Below, piece by piece: positions 35,413 through 37,572 of a DNA stretch of 64,000 nucleotides. Below the pieces are notes generated by a model. The model worked only from the letters and a program-made list of their open reading frames with translations. It was not told the DNA's origin and made no database searches. Made by a program: the position numbers and the translations under genes. Position 1 is the stretch's first letter. Every line of letters starts with the position of its first letter. The DNA comes from Macrostomum lignano (lineage: Eukaryota): positions 1 through 64,000 of the forward strand of contig NIVC01000267.1 in the NCBI GenBank assembly GCA_002269645.1. Reading direction: 5' to 3'.

Positions 35413-36359
35413 GCCAAATGCACCGACCAAATGCGCCAGTCAAATGCGCCGACCAAATGCGTCAGCCAAATGCGCCGAGTTCTCATTGGCTTGTCTAACA
35501 TATTGACCAAATTCGCTGACCAAATGCGCCGGCTTCTCATTGGCTTGTCTAACATATAGACCAAATGCGCCGACCAAATGCGCCGACCAAATGCGCCGAC
35601 CAAATGCGCCGGCTTCTGATTGGCTTGTCTAACATATTGACCAAATGCGCCGACCAAATGCGCCGACCAAATGCGCCGGCTTCTCATTGGCTTGTCTAAC
35701 ATATAGACCAAATGCGCCGACCAAATGCGCCGACCAAATGCGCCGACCAAATGCGCCGGCTTCTGATTGGCTTGTCTAACATATTGACCAAATGCGCCGA
35801 CCAAATGCGCCGGCTTCTCATTGGCTTGTCTAACATATAGACCAAATGCGCCGACCAAATGCGCCGACCAAATGCGCCGACCAAATGCGCCGGCTTCTGA
35901 TTGGCTTGTCTAACATATTGACCAAATGCGCCGACCAAATGCGCCGGCTTCTGATTGGCTTGTCTAACATATTGACCAAATGCGCCGACCAAATGCGCCG
36001 ACCAAATGCGCCGGCTTCTGATTGGCTTGTCTAACATATTGACCAAATGCGCCGACCAAATGCGCCGGCTTCTCATTGGCTTGTCTAACATATAGACCAA
36101 ATGCGCCGACCAAATGCGCCGACCAAATGCGTCAGCCAAATGCGCCAACTGCTGCCAACTGCGCCGACCAAATGCGCCGACGAGTTCTTGTCTATGGCTT
36201 GTATATGTGCATAGGGGAAATCTGTCACGCTAGTGCTGCATGATAAATGTTCATATATTCTATGGTCTATGGGCTAGGGAAATCCTATTAGGCGAGGGGA
36301 ATCCGAAATATAGTCGGCGCATTTGGTCGGCGCAGTTGGCAGCAGTCGGCGCAATTGGC
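35413..36359. repeat. Subterminal array of the 13-mer CCAAATGCGCCGA and 41-bp units, followed by a 47-bp inverted repeat (copy 2: ~55287-56408)
   Basis: Arms 36135-36181 / 36313-36359 with 2 mismatches; the right arm ends 4 bp before the junction core. Confidence 0.92.
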
Positions 36360-37572
36360 GGCTACAATTTTGTTCCTAAAAAGCTAAGACCCTAGGATAT
36401 ACCATGCTCGCCAATTTTAGCATCAATTTTACGCCTCTATTGGCTTCTATTATGGGGGTTGGTTTTCGCTGCTCTGTATTGGCCGATGACAAGGTCAATT
36501 GTATACTGTCTAGGGTCATCCCCCGTTTATATTTAACTCGTTGGTATCGAAATAGAAAGCGTGGGGGGTAACCCGCTAACTGATAAAAACGCGCGCGCGC
36601 AAGCATCAATCGAAGCCAATTCTGCATTCATTCATTCATTCATTCAATCTATGGTTAAGCAAAGTTAGTTAGAACTATCTATATTCTCTTGCTTGTGAGT
36701 TTTGATCATTTTGCGCATTCGCCCAGTCTGTCCGATTCGTTTGATTGTTTCTGGAATCTTGGATTATGATAAACTGTGATTGAACTTGTGAATGAACTGG
36801 AATGAGTATAGTGCGCCAAGTGATTTATACTTGGTTGGTACATTGACGCGTATTGGATTCATTCATCTGTTTATTGAAATATTTAAAATTGGCGCTTTCA
36901 CATTTTATTCTTCATTTTATGTCTATTTCAACTTTCAAATCCAACGTCTAATTAAATTACTCCGTCTTTTTTTCCAGTCACAATGAATTCCCTGTACTTT
37001 CAAAACACACACCAAACCTCGACTCCGCGGTCGCTTACCCCCTCTTCCATCGCTCGCCACTCTGCCCCCAAAAGCCCCAACCTCCCCACCCCCCCCCCAA
37101 TCCTCTCGCTCGCTTCGCTTGGCCCCACCACCCAACACTGTACTTTCATCGATCGATCGAAACCACTAAACTTCCACGCACGCGATCTTTTAGCCTGTCT
37201 AATTAGCTAGCAAACCAATTTGATATCAAACGATGAACGCACAACGGTCCGTTGTACGCACAAGACAACGATGTGCGGTCGGTTATTCGCTGTCTGTCTG
37301 TCTGTCTGTCTGTCCGTCCGTCCGTCCGTGTACAAACACGTTGCTCTCCCATCCAATTCCATACTATATAGACGGGCTAGGCTACCACAACGTTGTATTG
37401 GCCAACCTTCTCACTATCTATCTCTCTGACCCTCAATGAATTAAATGTGTCAGACAGACAGACAGACACAAAAGAAGTGATTGTATTATTAATTAACCTT
37501 TAGTTAAATTTGAATTCCAGCCACAGCCAACAGATCGACTATTTATTATAAGAGTTACAACTAATCCAACAT

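Follow-up and report, generated by a model that had tools for sequence, protein, structure and literature searches.

The stretch of DNA analyzed here (the window) is the first 64,000 nucleotides of the Macrostomum lignano contig NIVC01000267.1 (C267), and it holds two tandem copies of an element of about 20 kb inserted in host DNA. One identical 10-mer, ACAATTTTGT, bounds the tandem at its left edge, at the junction of the copies and at its right edge (Table 1). Outside repeats, the 2 copies differ at 72 of 12,810 aligned bases (0.56% mismatch); because they also differ in their internal deletions and left ends, the tandem is unlikely to be an assembly artefact. Both copies carry SF3 helicase coding sequence, and in both the recombinase module known from sister copies elsewhere in the genome is gone except for 340 bp. 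Minisatellites other than those listed in Table 1 are abundant throughout the element. A 200-bp box occurs twice (window 18502-18708 and 34928-35129, 79% identical), one of them upstream of the gene for a tyrosine recombinase (YR); it is inverted in a type B copy on contig C2367 and is possibly a promoter module. On the host side, a C2H2 zinc-finger gene with Pfam zf-C2H2 matches, which we take by its motifs to be INSM/nerfin-like, lies at 7808-8713 (+), 7 kb left of the insertion. Host minisatellites of 20 and 21 bp occupy 1-820, 10433-12103 and 13213-13349, and the host region 12104-12210 recurs at 13060-13205.

The right end of copy 1 begins with an array of 37 motif starts, composed of 18 perfect CCAAATGCGCCGA 13-mers, ten 41-bp units and 9 variants. 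Four of the 41-bp units are CTCATTGG/ATAGA (X), 5 are CTGATTGG/ATTGA (Y) and 1 is a hybrid, after which the order is X Y X Y X Y Y Y X. Copy 2 has 44 motif starts, including 22 perfect ones and 13 41-mers. This recount bore out an earlier reading made from the window alone (the sequence-only reading), which had described 13-mers interleaved with two mostly alternating 41-bp variants. That reading had also confined inverted copies of the motif to an arm beside the core, and with no more than 1 mismatch allowed the whole 64 kb contains six minus-strand matches, all within the two arms; allowing 2 mismatches adds 5 more, scattered over the 64 kb. The arm of copy 1 pairs with the last 47 bp of the array at 45 of 47 positions (30 of 47 in the second-best register) and is separated from the core by the 4 bases GGCT, as had been proposed. 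The odd CTGCTG spacer of the arm is also present in the array end of lineage A.

Table 1. Coordinates of features in the window
Feature	Position	Strand	Remarks
Left core	15876..15885	+	same as single core of empty site
Element copy 1, 20,488 bp	15886..36373	+	without recombinase module
21-bp array (TGACTGGTGATGTGACC...)	17197..18269	+	behind left end
Further 21-bp arrays	25570-27172, 37686-37981, 44776-46586
SF3 helicase gene, copy 1	28236..30613	-	long exon ends 28631, predicted GT-AG intron, last exon 28517-28236
77-bp inverted repeat pair	32844-32920 / 34056-34127		flanks AT-rich ~520-bp palindrome 33086-33603
Remnant of region just upstream of zinc-finger-YR gene	34892..35228	-	98% identical to sister copy C2093:113886-114225
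End array copy 1, type A	35413..36181	+	13-bp CCAAATGCGCCGA plus ten 41-bp units; CCAAT box of 41-mers on minus strand
Last 47 bp of array, arm mirror	36135..36181	+	45/47; in-register match only in this sub-lineage
Spacer, 131 bp	36182..36312	+	71-98% conserved across subfamilies
Three GG(G/A)AATC boxes in spacer	36214, 36277, 36296
ATATTCTATGGTCTATGG in spacer	36255-36272		100-102 nt ahead of core end
Inverted arm, copy 1	36313..36359	-	three motif copies, fixed phase to core
Minus-strand motif matches, arm 1	36315, 36328, 36347	-	≤1 mismatch
Junction core ACAATTTTGT	36364..36373	+	conserved part TTTTGT; copy 1 right end meets copy 2 left end
Element copy 2, 20,049 bp	36374..56422	+	without recombinase module; internal deletion differs from copy 1
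SF3 helicase long exon, copy 2	48038..50065	-
End array copy 2	55286..56230	+	44 motif starts
Inverted arm, copy 2	56362..56408	-
Minus-strand motif matches, arm 2	56364, 56377, 56396	-	≤1 mismatch
Right core	56413..56422	+	abuts host DNA

A junction query against the 764-Mb genome gave 78 matches from 40 of the 79 candidates scored. The family has dozens of ends in the M. lignano genome, and its elements range from 4 to 45 kb. TTTTGT closed 9 of 12 distinct left flanks and was off by one base in the other 3; ACAA preceded it in only 1 of the 12, the window's own. This count over left flanks is unbiased, whereas a position table of the core drawn from a pattern containing TTTTGT is biased. Right ends mostly finished in ACAATTTTGT or TGAATTTTGT, independent of the flank. 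The core therefore lies where the sequence-only reading had put it, but the part conserved genome-wide is the 6-mer TTTTGT and not the full 10 bp. Five contigs carried the left flank of the window. Two of them were filled; in the three without an insertion, a single ACAATTTTGT led into the right flank of the window (300/300). Likewise, empty paralogs of the insertions on C1045 and C2362 (2 of each) had a single core. Target duplication of 10 bp was rejected, since in all the other paired copies the left 10-mer is not the same as the right one. The single-core empty sites and the pattern of left and right flanks together indicate that the element carries its own core on the right and the core of the target on the left, with no duplication. 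Mismatched targets, used to locate the crossover point, gave one case each way. Right ends vary in the four bases ahead of TTTTGT (ACAA, TGAA, TCAA, TTAA, ATAT); we do not claim these as carried-over target, since neighboring positions vary too. Pairing of C2093:89998 with 115558 was wrong, the two being on opposite strands, and pairing with 68939 was doubtful, the right flank there being part of a repeat that has a different sequence upstream; the latter pair was left out of the pair counts.

The 18-mer of the spacer had 51 genomic matches compared to 3 for a control. Thirty loci with the motif were examined, the other 21 pattern matches having no assigned locus. The core followed at 100-102 nt in 17 of the 30 and at 108 nt in 1; the rest comprised 4 ends with a variant core, 1 partial locus and 7 unrelated ones. 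Rather than ending elsewhere or lacking the arm, the other copies share both the TTTTGT core and the inverted arm. Flanks, empty sites and the ends of other copies thus support the earlier proposal of a crossover site at the junction, and they mark this as an element end that is both functional and conserved. The block forms the right terminus of a large flatworm mobile element whose family, to all appearance undescribed, occupies TTTTGT sites. Rolling-circle insertion would likewise account for ends that have the target core on the left and the element's own on the right, and for copies arranged head to tail, so the enzymes have to decide between the readings.

Sister copies carry a spliced zinc-finger and YR gene approximately 0.7 kb inside the array. 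Its zinc-finger, core-binding and catalytic exons are joined in frame by two GT-AG introns; a public gene model also joins the three frames, a distant family has all three parts within one ORF, and one contig from run X16 spans intron 2 exactly at a depth of 4.8. Runs X16 and X19 covered 5 of 30 bins, and run X11 resembles DNA. The catalytic R-K-R-Y was found in sister copies only, the window copies having no YR gene. When the predicted YR structure (pLDDT 88.5, pTM 0.83) was submitted to a structural aligner, ranks 1 through 29 were all YR, TopIB, protelomerase or Ndc10 folds, and the two best matches had Z scores of 12.1 (rmsd 5.3, 207 aligned) and 12.0 (XerH; rmsd 4.1, 191 aligned). Foldseek with the same model returned YRs and TopIB weakly (best E 2e-3). 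A profile search with the YR returned 17 proteins. Four full-length relatives from other assemblies combine a double zinc finger at the N-terminus with a core-binding region and R..K..RK..QHS..HY, and one shorter relative matches Pfam Phage_integrase (2.9e-5). Pfam and PDB sequence searches with the family's own YR protein gave no YR match. The YR region had no match in a set of 5.8 billion sequences, nor were matches obtained in the phage sequence search or among viral and metagenome contigs searched with two of the relatives. Neither DUF3504 (P0026 included) nor DUF3435 was matched by the YR in Pfam, and the hhalign probability against the DUF3504 proteins of this genome was 0.1 with a shallow, 4-row template.

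Helicase and YR were both present inside single clean insertions at C157:498558-543936 (45 kb, situated within one small inverted-repeat element) and C2367:89984-114199 (24 kb, with a frameshifted YR). In diverged families the two genes lie 1-7 kb apart on 10 contigs, several of them duplicates. Minimal elements of SF3 helicase and zinc-finger YR, the smallest 8.1 kb, were observed at C957:80449-88537 and C1267:158754-166988 and have GCGGTAAAGCGGAT-type arrays inverted at both ends. A stand-alone 440-aa protein (L122:8642-9961; C157:508641-509960) contains a paralog of the YR double zinc finger, does not vary with array type, and is possibly a regulator or directionality factor.

The arrays fall into five motif types: A, CCAAATGCGCCGA; B, CCAAAGTCGTCAG; C, a 29-mer; D, CCAAGCGCGTCAG; and E, ACCAGTTGCTCCA. 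Inverted copies of the end's own array motif were present in the arm at 11 of 12 ends, and in types A, B, and D the arm motif has an identical phase to the core. Conservation of the arm across subfamilies was 52-96%, to be set against the range for the spacer in Table 1. Arrays started about 190-270 nt from the core in every right end examined and ranged from about 5 to 45 copies; in C462, type B units lie within a type A array. Left ends lacked motif copies over their first 1.3 kb. A distant 8-kb family has motif arrays at both ends, inverted, and another distant family has B/D-like motifs that read inward from the end and are oriented like the arm. GCAAA-GT/CG-CGTCAG motifs, similar to the array motifs, mark an end of the C150 family, which is at 30% identity.

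In all 10 copies compared, which stand for about 7 independent insertions, zinc-finger type agreed with array type. The zinc fingers were 36-63% identical between array types compared to 96-100% within them; the core-binding and catalytic exons were 97-99% identical, and the paralogous stand-alone zinc-finger gene 99%. Zinc-finger dS was about 1.0 or saturated compared to 0.03-0.08 in neighboring sequence, and dN/dS was about 0.26 between A and B. The zinc finger could be an old block under purifying selection that was exchanged together with the end, a pattern that linkage alone could also yield. The helicase of the type C copy on C157 was 99.3% identical to that of the type A window, and that of the type B copy was at 82%, so only the A/C contrast separates the helicase from the YR zinc finger.

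The stem proposed for the end was less general. Among 15 right ends, the in-register stem paired 44-45 of 47 bases in 4, 38 in one and 25-33 in ten, whereas a bulged fold-back of arm on array was available in all 12 ends folded (27-46 of 47 bases). The terminal arrangement said to be kept among copies is therefore the core and the inverted arm, the in-register 47-bp stem being particular to this sub-lineage; of the stem-loop said to position the cut or crossover site, it is a bulged form that could form at every end folded.

Taken together, these data make it very probable that the right end is a YR attachment (att) end. For the whole statement, that the end is an att end whose arm and array are predicted arm-type sites for the YR zinc finger, we estimate a probability of about 0.55. 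As judged from the sequences compared, the repeats are likely docking sites for the zinc fingers of the recombinase and not helicase-binding origin repeats. Arm-type logic is known from lambda and Tn916, and such systems usually carry sites on both sides of the core, so that the lack of motif copies at the left ends of this family counts against the reading. The YR would excise a circle whose joint reads arm-core-left end, as at 36313-36400; the core of the circle would then recombine with a target TTTTGT. The tandem of the window would result when a second circle, a sibling, used the core that the insertion had regenerated. The three phased inverted sites of the arm would place the integrase on the core, and the long array could serve for high-avidity loading and/or as an operator of the promoter that lies 0.7 kb farther in and drives the integrase gene. 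Zinc finger, array and end would move between lineages as one specificity cassette, and the nickase-less SF3 helicase would copy the circle from a different origin (the 21-bp arrays or the AT-rich palindrome). The match of zinc finger and array could be due to linkage alone, since the two are 0.7 kb apart in an old, recombination-swapped block and the sample is small. The similar motifs at the C150 family end mean that the sites could be meant for a host factor, and the fold-back of arm on array in 12 of 12 ends means that their matching could stem from template switching.

An unlikely alternative is that the core is recombined by the YR while array and arm form a replication or maintenance origin or an enhancer, with a zinc-finger protein or host factors recruiting the nickase-less helicase or driving the integrase promoter. 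Array, spacer and inverted sites do resemble the FR and DS of EBV oriP, the motif sites are one-sided, and a helicase that has no nickase of its own would have to rely on a partner, as E1 does on E2. The CCAAT boxes of the 41-mers, of NF-Y type, face the YR gene; motif variants contain CGTCA, and the spacer has its three NF-kB-like boxes. However, CCAAT 41-mers are missing from type D copies (0 in the whole C172 element), and the fixed phase of the arm to the core argues for a role in crossover. Furthermore, array, spacer and arm were kept in 7 of 7 short non-coding copies (five independent insertions), which have no YR gene, so a promoter role alone is insufficient. All 7 also retained the left end, the 21-mer array and the 77-bp repeat. 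The 21-bp motif is invariant in all subfamilies, and the 21-bp arrays and the palindrome are better origin candidates than the end array; the AT-rich palindrome with its 77-bp repeats is itself a candidate replication origin. The ~520-bp palindrome occurs in duplicate in C2362, 3 of the 7 short copies retain its core at length, and segments beside it are inverted in some copies (C157:573-585k, C2093:72-77k). In the short copies L067, L070 and L080 (C1045, C1597 and C33), telomere-like CCCTAA 39-mer arrays adjoin the end array.

It is improbable that core, spacer and arm alone matter and that the array is a by-product minisatellite kept matched to the arm by fold-back template switching. The wide range of array lengths in an element rich in other minisatellites would fit, as would the mixed array of C462 and the CTGCTG spacer of the arm copied into the lineage A array end, a mark of conversion. 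Against it, an array beginning some 190-270 nt from the core was kept in all ends examined, the 7 short copies included, and each of five motif types has both array and arm.

The sequence-only reading had taken the repeats for iterons of an SF3 initiator, analogous to the RBE/trs of AAV. The helicase has Walker A GPPGVGKT and Walker B MFIDEV, and its fold neighbors are CRESS Rep, parvovirus NS1, AAV Rep40 and papillomavirus E1; the model was poor (pLDDT 52, with residues 1-148 below 50) and the fold matches spanned only the ATPase. No HUH/HUQ motif, and no YxxK tyrosine at the expected columns, was seen in 8 aligned helicases with the motif placed by eye, the window helicase reading VSVTRHD where the motif III tyrosine should stand; nor was any Rep or HUH Pfam family matched in 8 of 8. 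A profile search with the helicase returned one protein only, labelled as the same species. Motif C is AGH in each of the four C-termini compared, both distant and window-type, with a histidine where SF3 helicases usually have asparagine. A Rep-like initiator on iterons, with a stem-loop positioning a rolling-circle nick at the core as in AAV or IS91/Helitron-like elements, is the least probable reading, for although the fold neighbors, the tandem with its end pattern and the fold-back open to every end tested would suit it, no nickase motifs were seen in the aligned helicases, the helicase stays 99% identical while the array motif changes completely from A to C and is accompanied by a YR in all families examined (lost from both window copies), and the in-register stem is present at only 4-5 of 15 ends.

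The reading as an att end can be compared with known systems. In the available text of the sources, the donor core CACCG of an active Crypton recombines into CAYCG targets (PMC9977147), Starships have a target-homologous terminal core (PMC10104507), the end patterns of Cryptons and Starships are summarized together (PMC13465315), and animal Cryptons are reported to have no terminal repeats (PMC3212892). To the extent of those accounts, the family is like Cryptons in being a YR-encoding DNA element with a short donor motif at one terminus that meets a near-identical target (PMC9977147, PMC3212892, PMC13465315), in 4-6-bp direct repeats without duplication and in having non-autonomous derivatives. 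Unlike that of CryptonA, the YR is not DUF3504 and bears an N-terminal double zinc finger; unlike Cryptons as described in those texts, the element has an SF3 helicase, further genes, a length of up to 45 kb and motif arrays at the end. Starships are likewise large multi-gene elements with a YR as the first gene inside one end, a target-homologous core and clean empty sites, but they are fungal, have a DUF3435 captain and no helicase, and are described in the available text with no swappable end arrays (PMC10104507). By its domains and ends, the family is thus best classed as a YR-mobilized element, Crypton/Starship-like at the ends and outside CryptonA and Starship.

The RBE-trs of AAV and parvoviruses and the HUH systems of CRESS, IS91, Helitron and Replitron elements share with the family, as far as the sources consulted extend (Replitrons, PMC10288648), an SF3 fold, repeats with a fold-back near the end, and tandems. 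They differ in that no HUH catalytic motifs were seen here, the repeats do not track the helicase and a YR is present. Integrases of the lambda type and of Tn916-Tn1549 have a distinct N-terminal domain for binding DNA, with phased sites next to a short core, and P4/PICI satellites combine integrase and SF3 helicase within one integrating replicon; the present element is, in contrast, eukaryotic and spliced, with a zinc-finger arm domain and one-sided sites. Polinton-like viruses, in the partial accounts available, also pair YR with SF3 helicase, whereas no capsid, packaging ATPase or pPolB family was matched among the ORFs scanned here, several of which had no match at all. A planarian element, PEVE, is said to be a flatworm element with a Rep-like helicase and inverted repeats. 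The freely readable literature searched gave no account of an animal element with a YR plus SF3 and no capsid.

We tentatively suggest, as a reading we hold to be possible though somewhat improbable, a new class of animal mobile element, a capsid-less integrating replicon in which an SF3 helicase derived from a Rep that lost its nickase copies the circle, a zinc-finger YR integrates it, and the zinc finger fits the end array as a key fits a lock, the two making up a cassette that can be exchanged; this might, to the same tentative degree, let a single catalytic domain serve several subfamilies whose ends stay separate. If true, this would be a eukaryotic counterpart of integrative plasmids and phage satellites. 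The known animal YR transposons are small one-gene Cryptons, the large YR elements on record being fungal. An animal family of 4-45 kb that moved recently and pairs a YR with an SF3 helicase would provide a missing copy-gain route for YR elements and would connect the Reps of ssDNA viruses with integrating dsDNA replicons. With three matched sets of zinc finger and motif occurring naturally on recombinases that are 97-99% identical, the way in which a eukaryotic YR recognizes its ends can be tested directly. A recombinase with a 6-bp target and large cargo would also be attractive for engineering the genome of an animal that serves as a model of regeneration.

Copies of the family nest in or beside each other at C157:490-590k and C2093:68-140k, and there they also carry other transposons, presumably LINEs, a hAT-like ORF and a CACTA-like ORF by their motifs. 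Genes that we take, again by motif, to be Polinton-like and a Helitron-like Rep/helicase gene adjoin family members at L138 (C957:93-103k) and L127 (C2367:86-89k).
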